Shown here: positions 953-22,434 of the stretch, one piece after another
Layout: every line of letters starts with the position of its first letter
How positions within the stretch are numbered: position 1 is the stretch's first letter
DNA from: Enterobacter quasihormaechei
Lineage (GTDB): Bacteria; Pseudomonadota; Gammaproteobacteria; Enterobacterales; Enterobacteriaceae
Reading direction: 5' to 3'
Assembly: GCF_004331385.1 (NCBI RefSeq)
Contig: NZ_SJON01000029.1
Location: 414 to 24,413, forward strand
Length of the DNA: 24,000 nucleotides
The notes under the pieces: model-generated
What the model was told of the DNA's origin: nothing
Databases searched by the model: none
The model's input: only the letters and a program-made list of their open reading frames with translations
Translations under genes and position numbers: made by a program

Positions 953-1009
953 AGATCCTCCACGGTTAACATATTCTCGGTTCCGGCATCGCCGTGACGA
1001 CACGACAGA

Positions 1010-1164
1010 CCGGCGAAAAGCGGAGGACACAGGGGCGACGCCGCAAGCCGCAGCGCAAAGCCTTCACGGGCTGAATGCACCGTGAAGGGTGCGAACGGGT
1101 GAGGACGGAGGCGTGAGCGAACCCTTGTGGCCGATGCGGCCGGGCTACAGTGAAGTCACGGCGC
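1010..1164 (-). repeat. GC-rich hairpin repeat copy 1 (Frpo-like candidate single-strand promoter) upstream of klcA
   Basis: About 155 bp, closely similar to 2750..2904 and 3735..3889. Central stem CCTTCACGG (1061-1069) / CCGTGAAGG (1080-1088) around the loop GCTGAATGCA. Ends 58 nt before the klcA start. Confidence 0.6.
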
Positions 1165-2697: not shown

Positions 2698-2720
2698 AGA
2701 CACACTCCTCTCTGATATGC

Positions 2721-2904
2721 GGCACCCTCTTGCGCCGTGCCGCCACAAAAACCCGGCGAAAAGCGGAGGGCGCAGGGGCGACGCCGCAAGCCGCAGCGCA
2801 AGCCTTTCACGGGCTGAATGCACCGTGAAAGGTGCGAACGGGTGAGGACGGAGACAAGTGAACCCTTGCGACCGCAGCGGCCGGGTTAGCGTGAAGGCAC
2901 GGCG
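2721..2904 (-). repeat. GC-rich hairpin repeat copy 2 (Frpo-like candidate single-strand promoter) upstream of the methyltransferase
   Basis: Near-identical to 3706..3889, including the 5'-UTR-proximal GGCACCCTCTTGCGCCGTGCCGCCACAAAAAC block. Perfect 10-bp stem 2803-2812 / 2823-2832 with loop GCTGAATGCA. Ends 24 nt before the start codon. Confidence 0.6.
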
Positions 2905-3056
2905 TTGAACACGCCGCCGGCTGGCGGCAATAAGGCGGAGGGAACCGACATCCTTCGGTACCGGTTCTGGTAGCTGATGAGTCCGTGAGTGTATGGCAGA
3001 ATGCACACTGATAATGGATTCGCGCCGTTATCTGACATGTGTGCCTTTGATTTCAG

Positions 3057-3086
3057 GACGTCCCCGACCGGAGACGTCTTTTTTTT
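3057..3086 (+). terminator. Rho-independent terminator-like hairpin, plus-strand orientation
   Basis: GACGTC (3057-3062) pairs with GACGTC (3073-3078), followed by T8 (3079-3086). The T-run is present only in the plus sense. Confidence 0.45.
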
Positions 3087-3185
3087 GAGTCGGATATATG
3101 GCAGGTGAAAGTGCGAAGTGATTATGTGATTATCAGCGCCGAAAACATCTTAAGGGTTTTCACCTGTAACGAATTGCATGGCTTC

Positions 3186-3219
3186 AGGACACCCCCTCCC
3201 CGGATGGTGTCCTTTTTTT
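3186..3219 (+). terminator. Rho-independent terminator, plus-strand orientation, abutting the stop codon of the minus-strand ORF 3219..3686
   Basis: AGGACACC (3186-3193) pairs with GGTGTCCT (3206-3213), followed by a T-run to 3219. No T-run follows the hairpin in the minus sense. Confidence 0.55.
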
Positions 3220-3686
3220 CAGCGCCCCTTCACGTGGTCGATAGCGAACTGCAGCGTGTCCCAGTTAAAACCGATGCCTGCATCGTGGCTGTGGTCGCAG
3301 ATACGCATGGCTTCTGCAATTTCTTCCTCCGACAGACTGTCATCAAGCGACAGAAAATCATCTTCCAGCCAGAACGTCCCCATACACAGTGCATCCGGTG
3401 GGTACTGCTTCAGCCTGGCGATGAGCCCTGCCACCGTCACATCATCACGACATGCAGGACGCGACGGCAGGACGCGATCGGCGATGTCGTTCCAGCACCA
3501 GTCATCGCACTCCGGTACGGGTTCCAGCAGGGTCTGTAATTCCACGCCCGGCAGCTGGGAGAGCTGCTCCAGAACCTCCCCCAGAGAAAGTCGCTCTCCG
3601 CTGGCATCTTCACTCCCCAGGTAATGGTGATTGATATAGACGGCAAACTCGCCGTTATCGAGTTCAATACAGGTCAGTCTGAACAT
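3219..3686 (-). CDS. Highly acidic leading-region protein (155 aa); candidate anti-defence/DNA-mimic protein, function unknown
   Basis: From MFRLTCIELDNGEF I count 31 D+E versus 10 K+R. GAGGA RBS lies about 8 nt before the ATG at 3686. Directly preceded by repeat copy 3. The track extension to 3932 crosses the repeat. Confidence 0.6.
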   Translation of the reverse strand: MFRLTCIELDNGEFAVYINHHYLGSEDASGERLSLGEVLEQLSQLPGVELQTLLEPVPECDDWCWNDIADRVLPSRPACRDDVTVAGLIARLKQYPPDALCMGTFWLEDDFLSLDDSLSEEEIAEAMRICDHSHDAGIGFNWDTLQFAIDHVKGR

Positions 3687-4144: not shown

Positions 4145-4525
4145 TTATTTAGCTGTTTTGCAGGCTGAGACTAACGATGATCGGAGTACGCGAAACTCTA
4201 TCACGTCGTTACGCCCGAGGAGCTTGAGGGCGTCTGGGGAACAGGCCATTGCAGCCTTCAGTGCCAGTGAAATGGCGAGGCTGCGGTAGCGGTTTTGCAG
4301 CATGATGGGAGCATCAGCAGGCACTGCGTCAGACACCTGTAGATACGCTTTCCATGCATCTGGCTGTGCCAAAGCATCACGTTCCACGGCTTCGAGCTGG
4401 TCTTCACGTTCCTTTTGCTTTTGCTTGGCCATCTGGTCAAGAACCGCCACTGTGGCTGCCGCATTCACCGCACCAGGTATTGCCAGTGTGAGCGCCACAA
4501 ACAAAATTGCAGTATTACACTTCAT
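4145..4525 (-). CDS. Exported hypothetical protein (126 aa) with Sec signal peptide
   Basis: The N-terminus MKCNTAILFVALTLAIPGAVNA-AAT is a classical signal peptide with an AxA cleavage site. Its start overlaps the stop of a 33-codon upstream ORF (ATGA). Confidence 0.6.
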   Translation of the reverse strand: MKCNTAILFVALTLAIPGAVNAAATVAVLDQMAKQKQKEREDQLEAVERDALAQPDAWKAYLQVSDAVPADAPIMLQNRYRSLAISLALKAAMACSPDALKLLGRNDVIEFRVLRSSLVSACKTAK

Positions 4526-4623
4526 TTGTCCTCCTCATTGTTGTTCATCTCCCTTATGTCCTGACAGTTCAACAGCTCGCTGGCCTCCGCCAGCGTCAGC
4601 CCCGCTCTCTCAACCCTTTGCAT
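4522..4623 (-). CDS. Possible 33-aa small protein (MQRVERAGLTLAEASELLNCQDIREMNNNEEDK)
   Basis: Not in the ORF track because it is under 60 aa. GGGAGGG Shine-Dalgarno lies 4-5 nt upstream of the ATG at 4623. Its stop overlaps the next ATG (ATGA at 4522-4525). Confidence 0.35.
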   Translation of the reverse strand: MQRVERAGLTLAEASELLNCQDIREMNNNEEDK

Positions 4624-4670
4624 CAGTCCCTCCCGGGCTGTCTGGTTACCATTCTGAATGATGTTCCTGC

Positions 4671-4934
4671 TCAGGATCGGTTCTTCGGCTTTTTATCGTC
4701 AAACGCCAGGAGAACACCGAGGCCGATCAGCGAGGCGTAGCAGACCTGCATCGCAATTGTCACCGGCAGGGAGATATTATCAACCAGAACACCGGGAACC
4801 ACGACGGCAACACCTGCCAGTATCATTCCCCTGCCGATCTTTTTTACCCGTTCCGGCCACTGAGATTCAGGCACGTTCCGGGCGCGCAGAAAGTTATGAA
4901 TGCACTGCTCTGCTTTTTGTTTAATCACTGACAT
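4671..4934 (-). CDS. Small membrane protein (87 aa, two hydrophobic spans)
   Basis: Hydrophobic spans GMILAGVAVVVPGVLV and VTIAMQVCYASLIGLGVLLAF. The start lies 3 nt after the stop of the upstream ParR-like gene. Confidence 0.55.
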   Translation of the reverse strand: MSVIKQKAEQCIHNFLRARNVPESQWPERVKKIGRGMILAGVAVVVPGVLVDNISLPVTIAMQVCYASLIGLGVLLAFDDKKPKNRS

Positions 4935-4937
4935 GTT

Positions 4938-5600
4938 CTAGTCTCCGAATGCCCGGCGCATATTTTTCTTTATCCTGGTCGCTTCAGCGGATACCGGTGC
5001 GGCAGGCTCCGCTGGTTTCTCCGGCACTGCAGCCATACTCACGTCAGCCGTACCAGCCATCTGCTGAACCAGAACCTGCAGCTCGCTGACCGTGCCGGGC
5101 GGTACCGGCATACTGGCCAGCAGACGCGGCAGCTCCGGTGCGGTCGTATGCAGGGCCAGACCGGTGATAATCAGGTTTCTCAGCAGCTCTCCGCGCAGGC
5201 GGGATGACACGCCCGTCAGCACACGCTCAACCCGTTCACTGCTCCGGTCATCCTGAAGCGTCAGGGTGTAACGCCGGCGCTGGTATTCCGTCTCCGGTGA
5301 CATGGCCAGAGCCGCCACGCCACCATCAGGCTCATCAGGAAGTCCTGAGAGTGAAGACCAGGTGCCGGATACCAGCGCCATCACGGCACAAAGCCGGATA
5401 GCGCTCAGATGCCCGTCAAAGAACACCGGGATCAGCGCCGGTAAACGTGCATCCGTCTGGTACATCACCGCCCCGGCGGTGGCGGCGGTCCGGATGAAGT
5501 CACCACGCAGGGGCTGTGAGATGGTGCTGATGGTCGCCATCGCCGCGATGTCGGTGCGATCGTCGCTGTGCAGATAGAAAGAATACTGGCCGTCCGGCAC
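4938..5600 (-). CDS. Putative ParR/StbB-type partition adaptor (220 aa), assigned by position only
   Basis: Begins 2 nt after the parM stop, the standard parM-parR order. No motif recognised, and it is longer than R1 ParR. Confidence 0.5.
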   Translation of the reverse strand: MPDGQYSFYLHSDDRTDIAAMATISTISQPLRGDFIRTAATAGAVMYQTDARLPALIPVFFDGHLSAIRLCAVMALVSGTWSSLSGLPDEPDGGVAALAMSPETEYQRRRYTLTLQDDRSSERVERVLTGVSSRLRGELLRNLIITGLALHTTAPELPRLLASMPVPPGTVSELQVLVQQMAGTADVSMAAVPEKPAEPAAPVSAEATRIKKNMRRAFGD

Positions 5601-5602
5601 GT

Positions 5603-6577
5603 TTAGTCCTCTTTATTGTAAAGGGCAATCTCTCTGGCCAGCGCCAGCTGCGGATCGCCGATAACCTCGATACGGTCAGGAGCCAGAGGCCAGGCCTGAC
5701 GGATAGCCTCTTCAATGAGGGATGCCCCTCCCCCGACCAGGAATACCCGGTTAACGTTCCTGAAGGCCGTCAGCTCACTGGTGACGCGCGCGCCCAGGGA
5801 AGTGATTGCCTCTGTAATTTTGTTCAGAACATTGTCAATTTTTCCGGCATCGTTGATCACTCGCTGCAGATACTGACGATCATTGCGGTTGCGGATGACC
5901 GTGTCAGCAATAAGCGCGCTGGTTTCGCTGTCTGCAGCCCGCAGCGCGCCTGCAGCTGCGCGGGTGACCTGTGACACGCCGACAGACGGATTGCCGTGTA
6001 CCGCACTGATATCATCAAACTGTCCGACAATCACGCCGGCATCGAGCGTGGTTCCGCCGAGATCGATAATCAGTGTGGTCTCAGCGGGTCCGGGCTTCAG
6101 CTCGGCGAGACGGGAGAACGCCGCCGGCAGTGATTCCGGCATCACCTTCACGTCCGTTACGGTAAATGCCCTGCCCTTATTCAGAACCAGCTCACGCATC
6201 AGGTTTTCCCGTTTGCGTCGGATGTTCTCCTCGTTCCGCTGGCAGTCCCCGTCATAATACTCGCTCAGGGGCAGCGTCACGGTCAGGCTCACCGGCTGCG
6301 GCTCAAGTCCGCTGTTCAGCAGGGCATGATGCACGGCCAGCAGGTTGAGATCACCGTACTGGTATTCCACGTTTGTCGTCGGGATGGCATCCCGGCTGAC
6401 GCTGTCCCAGGTGTATTTCAGCGTGCCCACCTGATAGTTGAACGTTGCGGCACTGAATTCCGCCACTTTCCAGCCATGCCGGAAGGAGTTAGCTGAAACC
6501 CGGGTCTGCAGCTCGTTTCCTTCAAACCATGCCAGCTTAACATTAGTTGAACCATCATCGCAGTAAATATTCATCAT
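5603..6577 (-). CDS. parM: Actin-like plasmid segregation ATPase ParM/StbA (324 aa)
   Basis: Actin-fold phosphate motifs: N-terminal IYCDDGSTNVK, IIDLGGTTLD and the C-terminal FLVGGGA. GGAG RBS. Followed by an adaptor-position gene and preceded by an AT-rich repeat region. Confidence 0.85.
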   Translation of the reverse strand: MMNIYCDDGSTNVKLAWFEGNELQTRVSANSFRHGWKVAEFSAATFNYQVGTLKYTWDSVSRDAIPTTNVEYQYGDLNLLAVHHALLNSGLEPQPVSLTVTLPLSEYYDGDCQRNEENIRRKRENLMRELVLNKGRAFTVTDVKVMPESLPAAFSRLAELKPGPAETTLIIDLGGTTLDAGVIVGQFDDISAVHGNPSVGVSQVTRAAAGALRAADSETSALIADTVIRNRNDRQYLQRVINDAGKIDNVLNKITEAITSLGARVTSELTAFRNVNRVFLVGGGASLIEEAIRQAWPLAPDRIEVIGDPQLALAREIALYNKED

Positions 6578-6784: not shown

Positions 6785-6806
6785 CATTTAGACGTCAGGA
6801 GGAAAG

Positions 6807-7238
6807 ATGAAACTGCAGCTTTTCAGCACCGGGAAAGCACTCCCGCCACAGGCCCATCCGTTGTTTGCAGACCTGGCCAGCTGCGGTTTTCCCAGCCCTG
6901 CCGCTGACTATGTCGAGTCCGACCTGGATCTCCATGATTACTGCATACGGCACCCGAGCGCGACTTACTATCTCCGTGCCAGCGGTGACAGCATGTCCGA
7001 CGGCAGCCTTTACAATGGCGATCTGCTGGTTGTGGACAGTGCAGAGAAGCCCCGGCACGGCGATATTGTTGTGGCCAGCGTGCAGGGGGAGTTTACGGTT
7101 AAACGGCTTCTGCTGACGCCACGACTGACGCTGCAGCCAATGAACGCCGCCTGGTCGCCGATTTATCCCGACCCGGACGATCTGGATATCTTTGGCGTCG
7201 TCACGCACATCATCCACCGCCCGAGGGAGATGTACTGA
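6807..7238 (+). CDS. umuD: UmuD/MucA-family SOS mutagenesis protein (143 aa)
   Basis: Cys-Gly self-cleavage site ([13 protein letters not shown]), catalytic Ser (ASGDSM) and Lys (FTVKRL). AGGAGG RBS. LexA box upstream. Overlaps the next gene by one base (stop TGA 7236-7238, next ATG 7238-7240). Confidence 0.9.
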
Positions 7239-8500
7239 TGTTTGCCCTGGCCGATGTGAACAGCTTTTATGCCAGCTGCGAACGTGTTTTCCGCCCTGAT
7301 TTGAAAGGAAAGCCGGTTGTGGTGCTCAGTAATAACGATGGCTGCGTCATCGCAAGAAGTGCCGAGGCAAAGCCCTGGATCAAAATGGGCACGCCGTGGT
7401 TTCAGATGAAAAACGAAAAGTACCCGGAAAAAATATACGCGTTCTCAAGCAACTATGAACTTTATGCCTCGATGTCAGCGCGCGTGATGAGCTGCCTGGA
7501 GGAGCTGGCCCCCAGGGTGGAACAGTATTCGATTGACGAGATGTTCCTCGACCTGACCGGCGTTGAGCACTGCATGGACCTGGAGGACTTCGGCCGGCAG
7601 CTGCGCCAGCACGTGTATGACTGTACCCGTCTGACCATCGGCGTGGGTGCCGGGCCGACGAAAACCCTGGCAAAATCAGCCCAGTGGGCCTCAAAGGAGT
7701 GGAAACAGTTTCGTGGCGTGCTCGCCCTGACCCGGGGGAATCCTCAGCGAACGCGGAAACTGCTTTCACTGCAGCCGGTCGAAGAGATCTGGGGCGTGGG
7801 AAACCGTATTGCACGCAAGCTCAATGTTCTTGGCATCAGGACCGCGCTCGATCTGGCCCTGACGAACCCGGCCTTCATCCGGAAAAATTTCTCCGTCGTT
7901 CTCGAGCGAACAGTGCGCGAACTGAACGGGGAAAGCTGCATGTCGCTTGAAGAAGCACCGCCTACTAAACAACAGATTGTCTGCAGCCGCAGTTTTGGCG
8001 AGAAGATCACTGAATACGATTCGCTGCGCCAGGCTGTCTGTCAGTACGCAGAACGGGCCTCAGAAAAGCTGCGTAAAGAGCGCCAGTACTGCCGGCATAT
8101 TTCCGTATTCATCAAAACGTCTCCGTTCGCCGTTAAAGAGCCTTACTACGGCAACGTGGCCACGGAGAAACTGCTTACCCCCACTCAGGACACCCGGGAC
8201 ATCATTGCGGCCGCCACAACGGCTCTGGAGCGTATCTGGAAGGATGGGCACCGGTATGCTAAAGCCGGTGTGATGCTGAATGACTTCACCGGCTCCGGAG
8301 TTTCGCAGCTGCAGCTGTTCGACGAACGTCCTCACAGCGCTGAGCTGATGAAGGTTCTCGATGGCATTAATCATTCCGGGCTGGGACAGGTCTGGTTTGC
8401 AGGACGAGGGATTGCGCCTGCATGGCAGATGAAACGCGATATGCTCTCCCCCGCGTACACCACACGCTGGAAAGATATCCCCATAGCGAGGATCGGTTAA
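7238..8500 (+). CDS. umuC: UmuC/MucB-family Y-family DNA polymerase V catalytic subunit (420 aa)
   Basis: [44 protein letters not shown] is the canonical UmuC N-terminus. SIDEMFLD catalytic motif is present. Confidence 0.92.
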
Positions 8501-8990: not shown

Positions 8991-9713
8991 ATGGATACTC
9001 AAGCACTCTTGCCAGCTACTAAAACGTTTAAAAAACGCGCCAGTATAAAGCAATCTAACGAATTGACCGAAGCCGCATATTACTTGCCTCTCCAGGCAAA
9101 ACGTGTGCTGTGGTTATGCCTTATGCAGGCCTATTTCAACGACAGTCAGGATGATGATTCTGACGTATTACCTCTCTTCAAAATTAGCGTTTCCGATTAC
9201 GTCAAATACTTCAATGTCGCTACGTCTGTCGCCAGTCGTGATGTAAAGGCTGGGGTAAATGCTTTGGGCGAATCAACGGTTACCTTCTATCCAAAAGAAG
9301 GTGAGTTTGAAGAAGTTAAACGTCCTTGGCTTGCTGAAGCAGGAATGAAGAGAGGCCGAGGGTCCTGGCAGATTGAGTTTAACTACAAGGTCATGCCATT
9401 CCTTGTTGGCTTAACCTCCCAGTTCACAACCTATTCTCTCTATGACTGCGGCCAGCTCAATAGTGTTCGTGTCATCCGGCTTTATGAAAGCCTGTGTCAG
9501 TTCCGGAGCACTGGTGTCTGGATCACCACACATGACTGGTTATGTGAAAGGTTTATGCTTCCAACCTCGCAGAAGAACAATATTGCGGAAATGAAACGTA
9601 CCTTCCTGGAACCTGCGCTGAAGAAAATTAATGAGAAGACGCCCTTAAAGGTAAGTTATACAACCGAAGAAGATGGTCGCTTACTGTTTAATTTTCTTGA
9701 AAAAAAACAATAA
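8991..9713 (+). CDS. repA: Rep_3-family iteron-binding replication initiator RepA (240 aa from ATG 8991)
   Basis: IKQSNELTEAAYYLPLQAKRVLWLCL is the typical Rep_3 (RepE/Pi/RepA) N-terminal signature. Flanked by iterons on both sides. The track start at 8931 is a TTG that reads through the operator, so ATG 8991 is preferred. Confidence 0.85.
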   Translation: MDTQALLPATKTFKKRASIKQSNELTEAAYYLPLQAKRVLWLCLMQAYFNDSQDDDSDVLPLFKISVSDYVKYFNVATSVASRDVKAGVNALGESTVTFYPKEGEFEEVKRPWLAEAGMKRGRGSWQIEFNYKVMPFLVGLTSQFTTYSLYDCGQLNSVRVIRLYESLCQFRSTGVWITTHDWLCERFMLPTSQKNNIAEMKRTFLEPALKKINEKTPLKVSYTTEEDGRLLFNFLEKKQ

Positions 9714-10920: not shown

Positions 10921-11547
10921 TCATGAATTAATGATATCATGAATTTCTTCGATCATTTGTTTTGCTGTTTCGTTTAAGGATTTGAAAGGAGTTTCATGGA
11001 GGGCACGCCCCGCATCCAGAGCCTCACCGTAACTGGTTTTGAATGGAATGATTGTATTGAGAACTTTGAAGCCCCACGCCTTGATAGTCTCCTGAGCTTT
11101 TTCGCCCTGTGACTGAGATGGTGACTTTGCGACAATGAATACGATTTTGCTTTTCTCAATGCCCTTTTTAATCAATTCGCGGGCAAGTTCCAGAGAGGGT
11201 TCCAGATCATCAATTGTGGTCCCAGTGGTTATGATAACGAGATCAGATTCATCAGCCACATCCAGTGATGTTGTCTCTGCTGCAGGACGACCATCGATGA
11301 TAAGCAAATGGCAGCTATCTTTCATTTTGACAGCTGTATCTACCCGGCGGTAAAGAGCGCAGTCAATTTGGCTTAGACCATTGTTCTCGCGTCGTTCTGT
11401 CCACTTCAGAGAGGTTTGTTGCTTCGTGTCTATGTCCGCCAGATGAGTCTTCCATCCAGCTTCAGTAAACCCAACAGCAAGTGTTCTGGCTTTGGTACTT
11501 TTTGAACCTCCGCCTTTCTGACCAACGATCGATATAACCTTTCCCAT
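10921..11547 (-). CDS. parA: Small (type Ib, ParF-like) ParA partition ATPase (208 aa from ATG 11547)
   Basis: Deviant Walker A VGQKGGGSKST. Walker A' and B-like stretches LLIIDGRP and LVIITTG. AAGGTGG RBS precedes ATG 11547. An alternative ATG at 11562 lacks an RBS. Confidence 0.85.
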   Translation of the reverse strand: MGKVISIVGQKGGGSKSTKARTLAVGFTEAGWKTHLADIDTKQQTSLKWTERRENNGLSQIDCALYRRVDTAVKMKDSCHLLIIDGRPAAETTSLDVADESDLVIITTGTTIDDLEPSLELARELIKKGIEKSKIVFIVAKSPSQSQGEKAQETIKAWGFKVLNTIIPFKTSYGEALDAGRALHETPFKSLNETAKQMIEEIHDIINS

Positions 11548-13643: not shown

Positions 13644-14423
13644 TTAAAAGTTACCCTTCAACATGGCCACCGCCTCATCGCCCGGCATCTGGAACTGCAC
13701 CCGGTGACGTGCAGCCACATCGAGCGCAAACACCTTCGTATAAACTTCCGTTGAGCTAATCGACTTGTGTCCCATCAGGCTCTGCAGCACCTTCAGCGGG
13801 ATGCCGGCATACAGCATGTGCATCCCGTAGCTGTGCCGGAACGTGTGCGGGGTGACCGGCACCGAAAACGTCACCCCGTCGGCGGCAGCCGCATCAACGG
13901 CTTCACTTATCCAGGTCCGGACCGTCCTGTCGGTGATTTCCCAGATGCGTGCCTTCTCAGTTCTGCCGGTGCGTTTATTACGGCGCTCCAGCGGAATTTT
14001 CAGGGTGGCCACCATCATTTCCAGCTGGCGGGCATACTGCGGATCGGAAAGCGGAACGATACGATGAGGCAGGCTACCGGCCGGAGCACGACCGGCCGTT
14101 CGGGCCGCTTTCTCCGCACGCTGTTTGAGCGTGGCCAGCTGCACGAACGGGTAGGGCGGTGCCAGCGAAAAATCACTCCGTGTCAGGGCCAGCGCTTCGT
14201 TAATGCGCGCGCCGGTATTCCAGAGAGTGGCCAGCAACATCTTGCGGTGGAGATCGGGTACATAGTGGAGCAGGGCACTTACTTCCGGTGCCAGCAGATA
14301 TTTCGGCAGTTCGTCCTGAACGAGAGCCATCTGGCGCAGTGCCAGCGCGGCCGGGTAATCGATGGCCACCGGCAACTGAGCAGAGGAAAAAGCCCCGGTA
14401 TGGCCTGGCAGTGCTGGCATCAT
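13644..14423 (-). CDS. Tyrosine site-specific recombinase, ResD/Xer-like plasmid multimer resolvase candidate (259 aa)
   Basis: Catalytic signature R (TGARINEAL), H-x-x-R (HTFRHSY), H (GHKSIS) and Y (STEVYT). GGAGG RBS. No N-terminal arm-binding domain, consistent with a small resolvase-type enzyme. Confidence 0.85.
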   Translation of the reverse strand: MMPALPGHTGAFSSAQLPVAIDYPAALALRQMALVQDELPKYLLAPEVSALLHYVPDLHRKMLLATLWNTGARINEALALTRSDFSLAPPYPFVQLATLKQRAEKAARTAGRAPAGSLPHRIVPLSDPQYARQLEMMVATLKIPLERRNKRTGRTEKARIWEITDRTVRTWISEAVDAAAADGVTFSVPVTPHTFRHSYGMHMLYAGIPLKVLQSLMGHKSISSTEVYTKVFALDVAARHRVQFQMPGDEAVAMLKGNF

Positions 14424-14503: not shown

Positions 14504-14902
14504 TTATCCTGACTTGCCAAACAGCTGTGGCATTTCATCAAACATCATCAGGTGACGGGTGCGCTTTCCGCGAAAAATACGGCGCATCATCGGCGTGAAA
14601 TCCCCAGGCTCCCAGCCATAGGGCCACGTATGGTAAATCCCTTCCTGCAGCTTGCTGTCGCGACGTTCTGGTCCGGCAACGATACGCCTGACCTCCCTGT
14701 TCAGCGCCTCACCGCGCAGACCGTACTGGCCCAGGTAGCGGCGCAGCCGCGTTCTCGGCATTCGTGGATCGGATTTCACGTAAGCATTAATATCCATATG
14801 CTGGGTGGCGGTGAGGATATTCATGCCGTACTTGCGCATTGTGCTGAAGGCGCTGGCCATCACGTCCGTTTCGGTCTGTGATTTATCATCGGTCCGGTTC
14901 AT
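14504..14902 (-). CDS. Hypothetical basic protein (132 aa)
   Basis: AGGAA RBS. Arg-rich stretches (PRMPRTRLRRYL, REVRRIV, MMRRIFRGKRTRH). No family recognised. Confidence 0.5.
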   Translation of the reverse strand: MNRTDDKSQTETDVMASAFSTMRKYGMNILTATQHMDINAYVKSDPRMPRTRLRRYLGQYGLRGEALNREVRRIVAGPERRDSKLQEGIYHTWPYGWEPGDFTPMMRRIFRGKRTRHLMMFDEMPQLFGKSG

Positions 14903-14944
14903 CTGGTTTCCTGTTAACTGGCTTAAGGGTTCGTTCGTCCAGGC

Positions 14945-15268
14945 TCACGCGGTGCCTTCCTGCAGCGACCGGAAGGCAAGCAGGGCATCCGTCCTGGAGG
15001 GCAGCGCGATACAGTCCCCGCGCTGCGGGTTAATCTCTTCGTCAGTGGCCTCGTTATACCGCATGCGCAGCCGCCATCCCGTCACGGGAGGCGCGTTCTG
15101 TATCGCCAGCACCATCCCTTCCGGCGACAGCAATTCGCGGAGGGTGTAGCAGGCCCCGATACGGGTCGAATCCCGCAGCCACATCACAGGGTACTCACTG
15201 ACCAGCTGGTCATACACACATTCCGGCGTATGGAAGTAATTACCGTCCGCCCTGCATAAACCGCACAT
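14945..15268 (-). CDS. Hypothetical protein (107 aa from ATG 15268) with N-terminal CxxC...HxxxC
   Basis: Strong AAGGAAGGA RBS lies 4 nt before ATG 15268 (MCGLCRADGNYFHTPEC). The track start at 15340 overlaps the upstream gene and lacks an RBS. Confidence 0.5.
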   Translation of the reverse strand: MCGLCRADGNYFHTPECVYDQLVSEYPVMWLRDSTRIGACYTLRELLSPEGMVLAIQNAPPVTGWRLRMRYNEATDEEINPQRGDCIALPSRTDALLAFRSLQEGTA

Positions 15269-15311
15269 AATCCTTCCTTTACTGAGAAATCCCGCCTTCG
15301 AGTTTTCGTGG

Positions 15312-15650
15312 TCATTCGTTAGCCTGGACGGGACCATCACCTTTAGGGACGAAAAATTCTAATGTATCTTTCATTTTGGCTAGGTTATGTGCTCCTGCAG
15401 GGGCTGGCCCTCCTAGTGAAACTGGATCGTCGTATCCGTACAACGTTGTCCATTTACCGTCACTGTTGCGTTGCCCGATTAAACGGCAGGCCGCTGATAG
15501 AAAATACCTGGGTGAAAAGACCTGTTCCTCTCCGGCACGAATATCCCCTTTGTACCAGAGGTTATCATCAGGATGACCCACAGCGTTCAGTTCAGTAATT
15601 AAATCCCACATGTTGTCGAATTTTTGTGGTGGCTTTCTGTTCGGGTTCAT
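15312..15650 (-). CDS. Hypothetical protein (112 aa)
   Basis: GGAAGG RBS. First gene of a same-strand run ending in the recombinase. No family recognised. Confidence 0.5.
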   Translation of the reverse strand: MNPNRKPPQKFDNMWDLITELNAVGHPDDNLWYKGDIRAGEEQVFSPRYFLSAACRLIGQRNSDGKWTTLYGYDDPVSLGGPAPAGAHNLAKMKDTLEFFVPKGDGPVQANE

Positions 15651-16078
15651 TTATGCCTTCCATTTTCTTGTGAAATAGTCACTCAGAGTAATTATGACGG
15701 GCGGCAGATCTGTCTGCGCACAACCCTGCGTCTGTCACTCTGATTATTTTCCCCTGCCGTCATCATTTTCAGGCTGATAATAAGCAGCCATATAGCCACG
15801 TCGTTAAATTACCGGAGGGCCGTTCCGGTCAGATCCGATTTTTACGCTATTTCGCAGTTTCCGGAAGTGTATCACGCACACGGAATAACCACACCGCCCT
15901 TTTCCGGTGGTGAGCGGGCAGTCGCGGGGCAGGGAATAAACACTATATATAGAAGAAAACGCAGCTGACGGAGTGCCACATGTTGTGTTTCTGCGCTTCT
16001 GCGCGCCGGTGGGGTTCAGGAAGATCCGGAACTCACAGAAATCGGATCTCAGTGAAAAAAGAAGAACCGCGAGGTATC

Positions 16079-16102
16079 ACATGATGATAAGTGACATCAT
16101 GT
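16079..16102. promoter_or_regulatory. Inverted repeat ACATGATG-N8-CATCATGT, candidate operator upstream of the RHH/KAP operon
   Basis: Perfect 8-bp arms at 16079-16086 and 16095-16102, about 25-70 bp upstream of a possible promoter (TTGATG 16126-16131, 16-nt spacer, TATATT 16148-16153). Confidence 0.25.
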
Positions 16103-16188
16103 CATCAAATTGACTGAATTAAATATTGATGATTAACTCACGTAAAGTATATTCATTCATGCAAATTACCTCCCACTAAACTTAGCCC

Positions 16189-17298
16189 ATGACAGGATCC
16201 ACCATGCTGAGCCAGCTGACCCTGCGCTTTCACAAAAAACTCATCGAGGCACTGAAAATTCGTGCCGGCCACGAAAACACCTCGGTGAATGCCCTGGCGG
16301 AACGCTTTCTCGACAGCGCGCTGAAAACCGCCGCCCCGGAGGACAGCTATCTGGCGCTGCTCGCCGATCGCGATGAGGCCATCCGCCAGATGTACCGCAA
16401 AATTATGCTCGGCCAGACCTTCGGCCTGGCGCCGGTCACCCGTGACGAACTGCGGCTGCTGCTCGGCCTGGCCCAGGAAGGCTGTGTCCACGGCCGCAAC
16501 CGGCTGGTGACCCGCCCGGCCCTGCAGATGCTGCTGGACATCACCGGGGAACTGCTGGCCTGGCAGACGGAACATAATATGCCTGTCGATCTGCCGTACC
16601 TGCAGGGCATTTTTCACCTGCAGGGAGTAGCGCCGGCCGCCGAATACACGGACTTTCTTGCGACGCTGCGTCAGCGTCCGATCATCGACCAGGGCTACGC
16701 CGAACGGCTGCTGCGCCCGCTGGCGTCACAGTGCTTCGATCTGCGTACCTTCCCGGAGGAGGCCCTGGCGCAGATCTTCATCCTGCCACGCCTGCAGGCG
16801 CTTTTCCCGCTGGCGCTGCGGGGCGAGTCCTGGTGCGAGGAGGATGCGCGCCAGCTGGCAGAGGCCACTCACCCCGTGATCCCGGCAGTCAGGGAGACGA
16901 TAGAAGCGGGTACACTGCGGTTTGATATTCAGGTGGACGGACAGGAGATCGCCCCGCGGCCCGGCGGCTGGTATGAAGTTCCGCGCCTGCACCTGCTGAT
17001 CACCGGCCAGGATTTTGTCGTCCCGTTCGGCTGGGCCCATTTCTCGGAGCTGCTGGGCCTGTTCACCCTGTATGCCCGTCATCCGGACGCACTCGCGCAT
17101 GGCCACCACGGTGAGCACGTGATGTTCTCACCACCGGGTAACGCCTCAAAGGACGGCTTTTTTGGCCTCGACGGGCTGCGGATCTTCCTGCCGCCAGACG
17201 ACTTCGAAACGCTGATTCGTGAGCTGGTTGCGCGCTGCAGTGAAGGAATCCTGGCTGATGCGCTGAATGGTCTGCGTGGCCTGTACGGAGATCTGTAA
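16189..17298 (+). CDS. Ribbon-helix-helix domain fused to an unknown ~320-aa domain (369 aa; start may be ATG 16204)
   Basis: The N-terminus LSQLTLRFHKKLIEALKIRAGHENTSVNALAERFLDSAL fits the CopG/Arc strand-helix-helix pattern. I recognise no motif in the remainder. AGGA lies 6 nt before ATG 16204. The stop is 2 nt before the next ATG. Confidence 0.65.
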   Translation: MTGSTMLSQLTLRFHKKLIEALKIRAGHENTSVNALAERFLDSALKTAAPEDSYLALLADRDEAIRQMYRKIMLGQTFGLAPVTRDELRLLLGLAQEGCVHGRNRLVTRPALQMLLDITGELLAWQTEHNMPVDLPYLQGIFHLQGVAPAAEYTDFLATLRQRPIIDQGYAERLLRPLASQCFDLRTFPEEALAQIFILPRLQALFPLALRGESWCEEDARQLAEATHPVIPAVRETIEAGTLRFDIQVDGQEIAPRPGGWYEVPRLHLLITGQDFVVPFGWAHFSELLGLFTLYARHPDALAHGHHGEHVMFSPPGNASKDGFFGLDGLRIFLPPDDFETLIRELVARCSEGILADALNGLRGLYGDL

Positions 17299-17300
17299 CC

Positions 17301-19556
17301 ATGGCTCATTCAACAGAACCGCAGTTGTCCGGAAAACACCCCGACCGGGCCGTCAGCACACCGGAGGAAGATCGCTACGGATTTACCTACATTGCCACCG
17401 AGCTAGCCCGTGCCATTCAGGGGATCGGACGGGAGGGCAGTGCCGTAGTTGGTATCGAAGGAGCCTGGGGGACGGGAAAAACCAGCCTCCTGAACCTGCT
17501 GCGCACGGCACTGGATGAACAGAAAGAAGAACGGACGTATGTCCTGAGCATTTCCCCCTGGCTTGACGGCAGTGATACGTCACTGGTGGCATCACTTCTG
17601 TTGCCGGTCGCAGGCATCATTGCCGAAGAAGAAAAAAAACGGCTTACAGACGTCGAACGGGCAGATCTTAAAGAGAAGGAAATGCTGACTGACACTACCC
17701 GCACGCTCATGGATTACACCCGAGCGACCGCCCGAAGACTGGCTCCGCTCGCGCAGATCGCCGCCGTGATACCCGGGGTCCCCGATGCCAGCGGAGCCCT
17801 GAAAGCCCTGTCGGATTCGGACTGGCTGAAAGGAAAAGAAAAAACCACGGCAGAAATGCGCGCCGAAATCGCAAAGAAAATCGCGGAGCTGGATCTGAGT
17901 TTCATCGTCCTGCTGGACGATCTTGACCGTCTTGAACCGGCGCAGGCGGTGGAGGTGGTCAGGCTGGTGAAATCGGTCGCCGATTTTCCCCGTTTTCGCT
18001 ACCTGCTCTGTTATGACAAAGCTGTCCTGTCACAGGCTATCAGTCAGGGGCTGGGGATTCCTGATGGCGACCTGTATTTACAGAAAATTGTGCAGATCTC
18101 CTTCGGATTGCCGCGTCCGGAAACCTTTGTGCTGCGCCGGCAATTCAGGGAAGAGGCCATCAGGTTATACGAAACGGTAAACGGGCAAGCCGCAGAGCCA
18201 GTTATGCGGGCCGCTCTGACGAGCGTCGCCGACATTTATGGTGCAGCACTAAAAACCCCCAGGGAGGTCCGGATAGCCATTAATGCGCTGGAATTCCGCT
18301 ATGCGAGCATGCGGGACTATGTTTATTTCCCGGATCTGTGCTTTCTGCAACTGCTCCGCACCACGAATGTCGGCCTGTATGACTGGGTGGAAGCATACCT
18401 GTCTGAACGGGCAGTGGTGGAGTCCGGCGAAGGCTATGTCAGTGAAGAAGAGCTGAAAGTAATGACCGGGAGCCTGCAGACTCACCTGTCCCGATATTTT
18501 CCTGACTCAGCGCATACCATCGATGCGCTGAGTCAGTGGGTTCCGGGGATCTCTACCGGGGTGACGGACCTTTCCATCCAGCTGTTCAGGACGGGAAACG
18601 AACAGGAAAAATCCTTGCTGACCGCAGGAAGGCGGCTGGGTAGCCTGACGTACTGGCGATACTATTTCGCCTTTTCGGCCCCGCAAAACGTCCTGCAACC
18701 GGAGGTTTTCGACAAAATCTTCGCGGTGGCAGGTCATCCGGGAAAACAGCAGGAACTCGCCGAATTGTTGCTGGGGTATATCCAGAACATAAATTTATCT
18801 TCCAGGACCTGGTTTGAGCACATACTGACCCAGCTGACCCAGCCACATATCGCATCCCGCACTCCCGCTGAATGCCGCGGTTTGCTGCGATTCTTCCTGG
18901 ACTACGGCGATGAAATGCTAAGGCGCTACCAGGCGGAAGATCCGCGATTTGAGTTGCATGACCTGGACACCTACAGCGTGGCTGACCGCCTCATCAGGCG
19001 GATGTTACAGGATAATGCAGACGATACCCTGGTCTTCCTGACAGAACTGACCCGGAACGGCCGGGCCTGGTACTGGATGACAGAATATGTGCATCACCTG
19101 CTGTGGCAACACGGGATGGCCGGGGGCATATCGAAAGATGAACAGGAAGAGTGGATGTCTCAGGACACATTAGAGACGTTTCGGGACACGCTTGGTTTCA
19201 GGCTGAACAGTACAGCCATCACCGATAAACTGCCGGATTTCACCCTGCTGAACAGGTATATCCATGCATGGTGTGACATTAGCGGAGTGCACGCCGTACG
19301 GGAATGGGTGACCTCTCAGATCCAGGAAGATGAGGCTTTTCTGAAGTTGCTTTTACAATTGCGGGATCATCGCACCAAATCAGTAAAGAGGGGGTACCGT
19401 ACCCTGAAACTGGCCAGCCTGACCGAAATTCTGGGGGAGGAAGAGCTGATTAAAATACGTATCAGGCATATCAAAAAGACAGGCTATTATGCAGAACTGG
19501 TTGCCCAGGTCGAGCAAGCCATTGCAGGATTCCGGTACTCACAATCCGATCGCTAA
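17301..19556 (+). CDS. KAP-family P-loop NTPase (751 aa)
   Basis: DRYGFTYIATELARAI...VVGIEGAWGTGKTSLLNLL (Walker A, nt 17460-17486) and SFIVLLDDLDRLEPAQAVEVVRLVKSVADFPRFRYLLCYDKAVL (Walker B plus the following block, nt 17901 onward) are the hallmark KAP NTPase motifs. Long helical C-terminal region. Confidence 0.85.
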   Translation: MAHSTEPQLSGKHPDRAVSTPEEDRYGFTYIATELARAIQGIGREGSAVVGIEGAWGTGKTSLLNLLRTALDEQKEERTYVLSISPWLDGSDTSLVASLLLPVAGIIAEEEKKRLTDVERADLKEKEMLTDTTRTLMDYTRATARRLAPLAQIAAVIPGVPDASGALKALSDSDWLKGKEKTTAEMRAEIAKKIAELDLSFIVLLDDLDRLEPAQAVEVVRLVKSVADFPRFRYLLCYDKAVLSQAISQGLGIPDGDLYLQKIVQISFGLPRPETFVLRRQFREEAIRLYETVNGQAAEPVMRAALTSVADIYGAALKTPREVRIAINALEFRYASMRDYVYFPDLCFLQLLRTTNVGLYDWVEAYLSERAVVESGEGYVSEEELKVMTGSLQTHLSRYFPDSAHTIDALSQWVPGISTGVTDLSIQLFRTGNEQEKSLLTAGRRLGSLTYWRYYFAFSAPQNVLQPEVFDKIFAVAGHPGKQQELAELLLGYIQNINLSSRTWFEHILTQLTQPHIASRTPAECRGLLRFFLDYGDEMLRRYQAEDPRFELHDLDTYSVADRLIRRMLQDNADDTLVFLTELTRNGRAWYWMTEYVHHLLWQHGMAGGISKDEQEEWMSQDTLETFRDTLGFRLNSTAITDKLPDFTLLNRYIHAWCDISGVHAVREWVTSQIQEDEAFLKLLLQLRDHRTKSVKRGYRTLKLASLTEILGEEELIKIRIRHIKKTGYYAELVAQVEQAIAGFRYSQSDR

Positions 19557-21097
19557 GGCCCTGGCGGGGCCTTATGCATGCATAGCGGACTGTACCATCG
19601 ATAAAAATCGGCGGCAGGCATGGGCCTGCCATAATAATATCCCTGCACGTACGGCACCTGATTTTTAATCAGCCAGTCAACCTGATGTGCTGCCGTCACG
19701 CCCTCCGCAATGGTGGTAAGGTTCAGACGCCTGCTGAGGCCGACAATGGTGTCCAGTACCGGTGTGTCCACATCGGCTGACGTCAGGCTGTCGATGAATA
19801 TTTTGTCTATTTTCAGGTAATCCACCGGCAGGCTCTGAAGCAGGCTCAGTGAGCAGTAGCCCGTACCAAAATCATCCACGGCCACCTGACAGCCTTTCTG
19901 ACGTAGCTCATTGAGTTTCACTGATGCCGTCTCTGTGTCCTCAACCAGGCTGCGCTCGGTAATTTCCAGCACCAGGCGAAATGCGGCGTCCAGAGATACC
20001 CGCAGTCTCAGAACATCAGCAGTAAACGACCGGTCCGCCAGGTGAGGGGCAGCAATATTGACACCCAGATGGAAAGGGGCGTTCACCTGCCAGACTCTGA
20101 CATCCTCTTCTATCAGGCCAAACAAATGCTGCGTCAGACTGATAATCAGACCTTCCTCTTCAGCGGCCCGGATAAATACCTCCGGTGAAATACTCCTGCC
20201 GTCGGGACGTTGCCAGCGCATCAGGGCTTCGGCGCCGGAGCAGATGCCAGTTTCGGTGTCACAGAACGGCTGGTAGTGCACGCTGAATTCGCCATCTGCC
20301 ATCCCTTTCCTGATTTCTTCTGCCAGAGACATCTTTCTGGTATCCCAGAGGCGCCACATGTACAGCATGGCTAACGTCAGAAGCAAAGACAGGGGGCCGA
20401 GGAAAATCAGGTTGCGCAGGATGTAATGGCGAAGCGACAGCGGCGGGGTAAGGATCCGAAGCTGCGCCTGACTCACATCAGAGCTGAACTCAGCGGTGAA
20501 CACTTTGGATCGGGGGGCGGTTTTCTCCTGACCGGAAATGATGGGTCCGCCATTAAAGCGGAGCTGCTGAGCCGAATGATCCTCATCATCCAGGGAGTCC
20601 ATCAGGTCCACGAAATACCGTGCATCCACCACACTGAACGCCGTGGTCCGGTTGCCGACGCCGAATGCGTAGATAACTGCAGCATGGCCTGGCACGCTGC
20701 TGGTTCCTTCTGTAGCGATGACTTTCATCCGACCCGGAGGGGCTGAAACGGTAACACCGAAAATATCATCGGCACTTTGCTGCCTGGCACCGGTCACGGA
20801 TGAACAGATTAATATACCATCCCGGATAAGTCCGGTGCTGCGGATATAGGGCGTCAGGGCCCCGTTCTCCGTCATCTGCTGCAGGACGCTTTCACAGGGC
20901 CGCGTGGAAAGCCTGGCAGTCACCAGATTCGCGCGCAGGGCAATGGATGTGATGTGGTCGACCTGGCTCATCAGAATACCCGCCGTCACGGCAGTGTCCC
21001 TGTCCAGCTGTCGATAAGCCATACCTGATGACAATAGTGTGATCAGGAGTGCGGGCACGAGAATTCCGGCAGCCAGCACCGATTTTCTAAATTTCAT
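19553..21097 (-). CDS. CSS-motif sensor / EAL-domain cyclic-di-GMP phosphodiesterase (514 aa)
   Basis: N-terminal TM helix, periplasmic domain with ILICSSVTG (CSS motif), a second TM helix (LIFLGPLSLLLTLAMLYMW), then an EAL domain (GAEALMRW, LEITER, DDFGTGY, KIDK, EGVT). Architecture as in the E. coli PdeC/PdeB group. Confidence 0.85.
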   Translation of the reverse strand: MKFRKSVLAAGILVPALLITLLSSGMAYRQLDRDTAVTAGILMSQVDHITSIALRANLVTARLSTRPCESVLQQMTENGALTPYIRSTGLIRDGILICSSVTGARQQSADDIFGVTVSAPPGRMKVIATEGTSSVPGHAAVIYAFGVGNRTTAFSVVDARYFVDLMDSLDDEDHSAQQLRFNGGPIISGQEKTAPRSKVFTAEFSSDVSQAQLRILTPPLSLRHYILRNLIFLGPLSLLLTLAMLYMWRLWDTRKMSLAEEIRKGMADGEFSVHYQPFCDTETGICSGAEALMRWQRPDGRSISPEVFIRAAEEEGLIISLTQHLFGLIEEDVRVWQVNAPFHLGVNIAAPHLADRSFTADVLRLRVSLDAAFRLVLEITERSLVEDTETASVKLNELRQKGCQVAVDDFGTGYCSLSLLQSLPVDYLKIDKIFIDSLTSADVDTPVLDTIVGLSRRLNLTTIAEGVTAAHQVDWLIKNQVPYVQGYYYGRPMPAADFYRWYSPLCMHKAPPGP

Positions 21098-21280: not shown

Positions 21281-21565
21281 GTGCCCATGAGCGGTAAACG
21301 TTATCCCGAAGAGTTTAAAATTGAAGCAGTCAAGCAGGTTATTGATCGCGGTCATTCTGTTTCCAGCGTTGCAACACGTCTCGATATCACCACCCACAGC
21401 CTTTACGCCTGGATAAAGAAGTACGGTCCGGACTCATCCACTAATAAAGAACAGTCAGATGCTCAGGCCGAGATCCGCCGACTCCAGAAGGAACTGAAGC
21501 GGGTTACTGACGAACGGGACATATTAAAAAAAGCCGCGGCGTACTTCGCAAAGCTGTCCGACTGA
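21281..21565 (+). CDS. IS3-family transposase OrfA (HTH plus leucine zipper, 94 aa)
   Basis: YPEEFKIEAVKQV...SVSSVATRLDITTHSLYAWIKKY HTH, followed by a coiled-coil. The slippery A AAA AAA G motif at 21526-21533 lies within ILKKAAAYF. Confidence 0.9.
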   Translation: MPMSGKRYPEEFKIEAVKQVIDRGHSVSSVATRLDITTHSLYAWIKKYGPDSSTNKEQSDAQAEIRRLQKELKRVTDERDILKKAAAYFAKLSD

Positions 21566-21621
21566 GGTACGCCTTTATTCGTGACAACTCCCGTTGCTGG
21601 CCTGTTCGTCTGCTCTGCAGG

Positions 21622-22434
21622 GTGCTGGATGTTCATCCCAGTGGCTTTTACGCCTGGTTTAAGCAACCGTATTCTCAGCACCACCAGGTAGATTTGAGAC
21701 TGACGGGACAGATCAAACAGTTTTGGCTGGAGTCCGGTTGCGTTTATGGTTATCGCAAGATCCATCTGGACTTACGGGATAGCGGGCAACAGTGCGGAGT
21801 GAACAGAGTCTGGCGACTGATGAATCGTGCCGGGATAAAGGCTCAGGTCGGGTACCGGAGCCCTCGGGCACGCAAAGGCGAGGCCAGTATCGTGTCACCC
21901 GACAGGCTCCAACGACAGTTCAATCCGGATGCTCCGGATGAGCGTTGGGTAACGGACATAACCTACATCAGGACTCACGAAGGCTGGCTGTATCTGGCCG
22001 TGATTGTTGATCTGTTCTCACGCAAAATTATCGGCTGGTCAATGCAATCCCGGATGACAAAGGACATTGTCCTGAACGCACTGCTGATGGCTGTATGGCG
22101 GCGTAATCCTCAAAGACCGGTGCTGGTTCACTCGGACCAGGGCAGTCAGTACACAAGCCATGAGTGGCAGTCGTTCCTGAAATCACACGGCCTGGAAGGG
22201 AGTATGAGCCGTCGCGGTAACTGTCACGATAACGCGGTTGCAGAAAGCTTTTTCCAGTTACTGAAACGCGAGCGGATAAAGAAAAAGATCTACGGAACGC
22301 GGGAAGAAGCCCGCAGCGATATTTTTGATTACATCGAAATGTTTTATAACAGTAAGCGTCGGCATGGTTCGAGCAATCAGATGTCACCGACAGAATATGA
22401 AAACCAGTATTATCAACGGCTCGGAAGTGTCTAG
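21622..22434 (+). CDS. IS3-family transposase OrfB (DDE catalytic domain); expressed as OrfAB by -1 frameshift
   Basis: OrfB is in the -1 frame relative to orfA, and that frame is open from the slip site (21532). DDE triad contexts: WVTDITYI, VHSDQGSQYTS, DNAVAESFF. Confidence 0.9.
   Translation: MLDVHPSGFYAWFKQPYSQHHQVDLRLTGQIKQFWLESGCVYGYRKIHLDLRDSGQQCGVNRVWRLMNRAGIKAQVGYRSPRARKGEASIVSPDRLQRQFNPDAPDERWVTDITYIRTHEGWLYLAVIVDLFSRKIIGWSMQSRMTKDIVLNALLMAVWRRNPQRPVLVHSDQGSQYTSHEWQSFLKSHGLEGSMSRRGNCHDNAVAESFFQLLKRERIKKKIYGTREEARSDIFDYIEMFYNSKRRHGSSNQMSPTEYENQYYQRLGSV

Follow-up and report, generated by a model that had tools for sequence, protein, structure and literature searches.

The window analysed here is a 24,000-nucleotide (nt) stretch of Enterobacter quasihormaechei contig NZ_SJON01000029.1 (assembly GCF_004331385.1, forward-strand positions 414 to 24,413). 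At its positions 16,189 to 19,556 it carries two adjacent plus-strand genes, designated here A and B, preceded by an intergenic region with several inverted repeats. An earlier note on this DNA had proposed that the pair forms an undescribed two-gene defence system. We find, with high confidence on the basis of sequence comparison, that it is an intact, divergent orthologue of the pif operon (pifC–pifA) of the F plasmid, carried on an Enterobacter IncR plasmid. The features that make up the operon are:

16079–16105 (no strand assigned): candidate pifO-type operator, an inverted repeat with an overlapping palindrome; putative PifC-binding site
16110–16153, plus strand: candidate pif promoter region, from consensus matches only
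16204–17298, plus strand: pifC homologue (gene A), 364 amino acids (aa), 66% identity to F PifC
17301–19556, plus strand: pifA homologue (gene B), 751 aa, matching PADLOC PifA and Pfam KAP_NTPase; by homology a phage-exclusion/abortive-infection effector

The name pif stands for phage inhibition by F, and the system has been known since the 1980s; it is already represented among the PADLOC models (PifA = PDLC02361). Because the pair consists of full-length homologues of F PifC and F PifA, and so matches an already-named system, the description as undescribed falls. This is a known defence system in a divergent further copy, not a new system category. Both gene identities, the synteny, the intact motifs and the conservation of the operator candidate, each described below, were computed directly.

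Gene B matches the PADLOC PifA profile over nearly its whole length (E = 7.9e-285; aa 11–742 of 751, profile positions 4–716 of 720) and the Pfam KAP_NTPase family PF07693 with E = 4e-38 and 131.8 bits (cutoff 20). It is 43% identical to PifA of F (WP_000698737) over 689 aa. Walker A (GAWGTGKT, aa 54–61, including K60) and Walker B (FIVLLDDLDR, from aa 201) are both intact. Its original reading as a KAP P-loop NTPase is borne out by the Pfam match and these motifs, and its placement in a phage-defence (abortive infection) family by the PADLOC match. The acronym KAP itself refers to "Kidins220/ARMS and PifA", PifA being the name-giving bacterial member (PMC13001434, PMC13552941). NCBIfam has no PifA model and returned for gene B just a sub-threshold QatA match, and a sequence search of the PDB with full-length PifA produced nothing.

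A P-loop NTPase core is shared by gene B and several other defence NTPases of the KAP/P-loop type (QatA, PDC-S20, EF_KAP, Tmn), and KAP NTPases fused to C-terminal regions of unknown type are known to defend against phage (PMC13552941). QatA (5.5e-10) and PDC-S20 (1.1e-16) give partial matches confined to the NTPase core, which the PifA match exceeds in significance by about 270 orders of magnitude. Membership in either group was rejected, since the matches are weak and cover the core alone; the QatBCD neighbours are also absent. The parallel with Tmn drawn in the earlier note was off target. Tmn belongs to the YobI family, separate from PifA, and carries two transmembrane (TM) helices within its P-loop domain, whereas PifA, unlike most KAP NTPases, is reported to have none (PMC13001434); no Tmn model was found among the PADLOC matches of gene B. 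The two hydrophobic stretches previously pointed out at the usual position of a TM insert do exist, but they are not convincing TM helices, because their best 19-residue Kyte–Doolittle windows score just 1.53 and 1.11 against a usual threshold of 1.6. A TM insert was therefore rejected on hydropathy, the basis of the call throughout, by which no segment of gene B is TM-like. In this respect, as in its intact Walker motifs, gene B resembles its F counterpart.

Divergence from F PifA is distributed unevenly along the protein: identity reaches 49–55% in the NTPase core, drops to 33% in the insert between Walker A and Walker B, and is only 22–25% in the last 200 aa. This pattern fits a fast-evolving specificity region in the PifA C-terminus. 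Given the low identity there, the phage targets of gene B probably differ, at least in part, from those of the F protein.

Gene A was first described as encoding a 369-aa protein, and an open reading frame (ORF) of that length is indeed present as placed (16189–17298, plus strand). The start codon, however, is probably ATG 16204, giving 364 aa: RefSeq uses it, the resulting protein begins like F PifC (MLSQL), and it is preceded at a distance of 6 nt by AGGA (16194–16197), whereas ATG 16189 has no Shine–Dalgarno sequence. Along its full length, at 364 aligned positions, the protein shares 66% identity with F PifC (WP_000952217; E = 8e-173). Queried against plasmids with tblastn, gene A hit 1,293 records at a coverage of 80% or more, mostly with 60–80% identity, and many homologues in plasmid and NCBI records carry the annotation "pifC: transcriptional repressor PifC". 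No Pfam model exists for the family, which does not extend beyond Enterobacterales. In the literature PifC is a regulatory gene product of pif, the transcriptional repressor of the operon; the proteins of F and R64 additionally exert fertility inhibition, targeting type IV coupling proteins and thereby the conjugation of IncP and IncW plasmids (PMC5696584).

The layout of gene A comprises an Arc-like ribbon-helix-helix (RHH) N-terminus (about aa 1–45) and a body of about 320 aa. An RHH-type N-terminus and a role as regulator had been proposed before. The regulator role is upheld by the homology to PifC, and the RHH receives moderate support from a Pfam match and from an alignment of F PifC with Arc. 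Taken alone, the N-terminus reaches 27.8 bits on Pfam DUF6364, marginally above the cutoff of 27.3, and gives weak profile matches to HicB (0.032) and FitA-like_RHH (0.038). Residues 2–30 of F PifC align to residues 7–35 of Arc with E = 2e-4; the Arc sequence used agrees with PDB 1ARQ. The alignment places PifC Gln4, Asn6 and Arg8 on Arc Gln9, Asn11 and Arg13, which we take to be the base-contacting β-sheet residues of Arc. The likeness to Arc/Mnt-type repressors of phage P22 thus comprises an N-terminal Q-x-[N/T]-x-R-[F/W] motif followed by two helices, and palindromic operators as targets, the latter a candidate property in PifC. The differences are that the PifC RHH is fused to a body with a second activity, fertility inhibition, that its profile matches are each marginal, and that modelling did not confirm the fold.

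That the body contains no known motif was stated at the outset and stands after Pfam, PDB and Foldseek searches: the roughly 320 aa show no recognisable fold, with no Pfam family and no sequence relative in the PDB. Full-length PifC retrieved nothing from a PDB sequence search, and its N-terminal 55 aa gave chance-level matches. An AlphaFold2 monomer built from a 30-sequence alignment has a mean predicted local distance difference test score (pLDDT) of 61.9 and is confident just at about aa 80–220; Foldseek found no PDB match to this weak model at E ≤ 0.001.

The two genes are joined by the junction CTG TAA CC ATG. As described earlier, the TAA of gene A (17296–17298) lies 2 nt before the ATG of gene B (17301). 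In F (NC_002483) pifC likewise precedes pifA, at a distance of 1 nt, and the two are divergent from ccdA–ccdB–resD. To examine conservation of the arrangement we used a sample of 10 species-level genome loci encoding a PifC relative. In seven of them pifA lies directly 3′ of pifC, as it also does in F, in pE57-1 and in the source plasmid, which upholds the view of the pair as a conserved, coupled module; the other three have pifC without pifA. Across the same loci PifC is 61–94% identical to the protein in the window and PifA 40–85%. The window is 100% identical to the Enterobacter pasteurii plasmid pctg2 (NZ_CP056781.1), an IncR plasmid typed as non-mobilizable, in which RefSeq names the pair "hypothetical protein" and "P-loop NTPase fold protein". 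Both genes are likewise intact in a plasmid with 98.1% DNA identity and in others with 80–85% protein identity.

Upstream of pifC, the perfect 8-bp-arm inverted repeat ACATGATG-N8-CATCATGT noted earlier at 16079–16102 proved exact and unique in the window, and 100 shuffles with up to 2 mismatches allowed gave no match to it. It is overlapped by the palindrome TGACAT-C-ATGTCA (16092–16104), also unique in the window. L004 and L005, the nearest relatives, keep both repeat and palindrome amid varying flanking bases. The conserved -35-like hexamer TTGACT (16110–16115) begins shortly after the palindrome, with 5 nt between them, and a promoter consensus scan found TTGATG-16-TATATT at 16126–16153. 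Within this candidate promoter region the pattern AAATTGACTGAAT.AAATA.TG.TGATTAACTCA is preserved in L004 and L005. The upstream DNA is indeed AT-richer, as had been remarked: the GC fraction is 0.478 at 15501–16000, compared with 0.54–0.65 within genes A and B.

The type of palindrome upstream of pifC covaries with PifC residue 6, the position aligned with Arc Asn11, in 13 of 13 loci. PifC proteins with Asn6 are accompanied by TGCTA-N3-TAGCA at -45 (8/8 loci), whereas those with Thr6 have TGACAT-N-ATGTCA at about -112 (5/5 loci, one with a single mismatch). F belongs to the former class and the present operon to the latter. Buttiauxella PifC is 78–80% identical to the F type and 66% to that of the window, yet it has Thr6 and the window-type palindrome. 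We infer that 16079–16105 is the PifC operator. A full-text literature search for pifO yielded nothing relevant.

The surroundings of the operon also recall F. The features on its 5′ side are:

13644–14423, minus strand: ResD-like tyrosine recombinase (Pfam Phage_integrase, E = 3e-18)
14504–15650, minus strand: three small ORFs (132, 107 and 112 aa) between the ResD-like integrase and pifC
15790–16075 (no strand assigned): intergenic block conserved with F (resD–pifC) in a three-way alignment with F and pE57-1; candidate resolution-site/oriV1-like region

The unit divergent from pifC–pifA thus consists here of the three small ORFs and the ResD-like integrase. The recombinase shares 86% identity with the integrase that F carries downstream of ccdAB, adjoins pifC in five of the other loci (L001, L003, L004, L005 and L011), and adjoins plasmid rep and par genes. 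It had been regarded as part of an accessory recombinase block, a view that does not hold for a conserved pif neighbour present in F as well. About 290 bp of the intergenic region (approximately 15790–16075) are conserved with F; the last 130 bp or so before pifC are not. The conserved part contains the inverted repeat AGATCCG-N14-CGGATCT (16022–16049), found also in F and 6 further loci, and the motif TTTCCGGAAGTGTA (15858–15871). Both elements are common to the resD–pifC intergenic regions of the present plasmid, F and at least 6 other genera. They are candidates for a ResD resolution site (rfsF-like) or for oriV1 elements.

Searches of Pfam, PADLOC and NCBIfam gave no match for the three small ORFs, and none of the other 11 pif loci contains a homologue. 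The same position is occupied by ccdAB in F and by another pair (about 230–247 aa plus 116 aa) in Kluyvera and pE57-1. The gap between integrase and pifC seems to be a slot of variable cargo, which might accommodate addiction or defence genes.

Taken together, the resemblance to the F operon covers both full-length proteins (66% and 43% identity), gene order, the gap of 1–2 nt, the ResD-like neighbour and the intergenic block. The differences lie in the operator class with its residue 6, in the last 200 aa or so of PifA, in the replacement of ccdAB by three unrelated small ORFs, and in the host, a non-mobilizable IncR plasmid of Enterobacter.

By analogy with characterised relatives we infer DNA binding, autoregulation, an abortive-infection mechanism and the phage targets. 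The Arc-like RHH at the PifC N-terminus would most likely dimerise and bind 16079–16105, just 5′ of the promoter, and this binding would repress pifC–pifA; autorepression is suggested because of homology, conservation of the site and the covariation of residue and operator. By homology, the body of about 320 aa may in addition hinder the conjugation of rival plasmids via their type IV coupling protein. PifA, as a soluble or peripherally membrane-associated KAP NTPase, would sense particular phage proteins. Against T7 and a few of its relatives the F protein acts by aborting infection, in dependence on gp1.2 and the gp10 capsid protein, and the aborted infection ends in membrane depolarisation and nucleotide leakage (PMC8594841, PMC11990801, PMC13001434). 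Once triggered, the protein in the window may likewise permeabilise the membrane and let nucleotides leak, aborting the infection.

Several observations weigh against parts of this picture. Gene B is just 43% identical to the characterised PifA, and least similar over its last 200 aa. In BLASTP the N-terminus of gene A itself gave no alignment with Arc, and only the F orthologue could be aligned. The AlphaFold2 monomer shows no RHH fold; the PifC N-terminus, at pLDDT 33–61, is modelled as helix. Finally, the authors of the BASEL study doubt that defence is the primary role of PifA (PMC8594841).

PifC loci in other genomes offer a further view of what may follow the regulator. In Dickeya oryzae ZYY5 scaffold4 (L013:5986-9589) and an Enterobacter metagenome-assembled genome (L009:1252-4848), pifC is followed after a 1-nt gap by a 289-aa HEPN-like ORF in place of pifA (Pfam HEPN 0.0046; PADLOC candidate PDC-S64 1e-16), and then by a convergent OLD/PtuA-like ABC ATPase of about 520 aa (HEC-04 1e-31). 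In an E. hormaechei chromosome (L007) a NUDIX ORF comes after pifC. The comparison suggests that pifC can head a slot holding different defence genes. Hundreds of Klebsiella IncFIB-type plasmids match just PifC aa 66–369, the RHH being absent, with no coding sequence (CDS) listed. In the single case inspected, K. pneumoniae pKP118 (L015, 3501–6636), truncation of pifC is accompanied by a pifA divided between two CDS. This plasmid lineage seems to be losing the pif operon through decay.

How the operon functions can be read in other ways. The idea in the earlier note, a new module with toxin–antitoxin (TA)-like or abortive-infection logic, with a KAP NTPase as toxin and an RHH-fused protein as the antitoxin that neutralises it directly, could appeal to the tight coupling of the genes, to the RHH-like N-terminus of gene A and to the absence of names for both genes in RefSeq. 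The BASEL authors, moreover, obtained no functional ectopic pifA construct (PMC8594841), which fits, without proving, a need for pifC or native regulation. Yet both genes are full-length orthologues of named and studied genes, and the roles given to PifC in the literature are those of transcriptional repressor and fertility inhibitor, not of antitoxin (PMC5696584). At 364 and 751 aa the proteins are unlike type II TA pairs, neither has a TA family match in the Pfam, PADLOC and NCBIfam searches, pifC occurs without pifA in 3 of the 10 loci, and the joint decay of both genes in Klebsiella plasmids departs from addiction logic. We consider antitoxin action by gene A very improbable. A smaller chance still attaches to the proposal that the locus is a decaying, non-functional remnant, as the hundreds of Klebsiella plasmids with 5′-truncated pifC (aa 66–369 only) and the single split pifA might suggest. 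Decay can be dismissed here because both ORFs are full length, with the Walker motifs, Shine–Dalgarno sequence, coupling junction and operator candidate all intact; the plasmid with 98.1% DNA identity and the relatives with 80–85% protein identity keep both genes too.

A more serious alternative than TA-like action accepts the operon as pifCA and places its main selected role in plasmid competition or housekeeping, with phage exclusion by PifA incidental. On that account PifC would inhibit the transfer of rivals and perhaps act at the adjacent oriV1/resolution region. The block imposed by PifC on IncP and IncW conjugation through the coupling protein (PMC5696584) speaks for it, as does the very narrow phage range of F PifA, for which its investigators suggest an origin that was perhaps not in immunity (PMC8594841). 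The operon moreover sits in the maintenance backbone, near rep, par and the resolvase and beside the F-conserved block. However, PifA diverges much faster than PifC in the same loci (40–85% against 61–94%), and its divergence is concentrated C-terminally, as expected of a sensor in an arms race. The pifA slot of the Dickeya and Enterobacter loci is taken by a candidate defence gene of HEPN-like type, beside which lies an OLD/PtuA-like ATPase, and the host plasmid is typed as non-mobilizable IncR. We regard this alternative as unlikely.

Returning to the divergent pif operon as a defence system, the observations can be joined in a tentative scheme to which we give somewhat less than even chances. 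PifC would be an Arc-like RHH autorepressor whose residue 6 sets the operator, Asn specifying TGCTA-N3-TAGCA and Thr TGACAT-N-ATGTCA. It would head a regulatory cassette located by a resolution site and furnished with swappable effectors, either PifA clades with a fast-evolving C-terminal sensor or the HEPN-like PDC-S64 protein, and the PifA clade of the window would target phages other than T7.

On the 3′ side, pifA is met by a convergent gene:

19553–21097, minus strand: CSS-motif and EAL cyclic di-GMP phosphodiesterase (EAL 1.3e-62, CSS-motif 1.8e-25)

It overlaps the pifA stop codon by 4 nt and contains a terminator-like hairpin at 19612–19631 (minus strand). Farther away, an IS91 transposase (4452–5675) and an IS3 transposase (21287–22434) flank the backbone region. 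Other backbone and cargo genes lie at 1003–1125 (minus strand), 6798–8500 (plus), 8991–9713 (plus) and 10921–11547 (minus) and comprise a Hok/Gef toxin, umuDC-like error-prone polymerase genes, the IncR replication initiator and ParA. Two overlapping plus-strand CDS at 2079–2735 and 2702–3514, each annotated "aldehyde dehydrogenase family protein", are probably one frameshift-split gene.

The value of the finding is mostly practical, a matter of annotation, and its scientific value is modest. Because the RefSeq labels are generic ("hypothetical protein" and "P-loop NTPase fold protein"), a classical operon of defence and plasmid competition goes unnamed on plasmids of Enterobacter, Citrobacter and Kluyvera. 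Two small leads in their own right are the covariation of residue 6 with the operator and an effector slot that may be swappable. A variant 43% identical to F PifA, with another operator class and a divergent C-terminus, could help to map the sensor region of PifA and the DNA-recognition residue of PifC.

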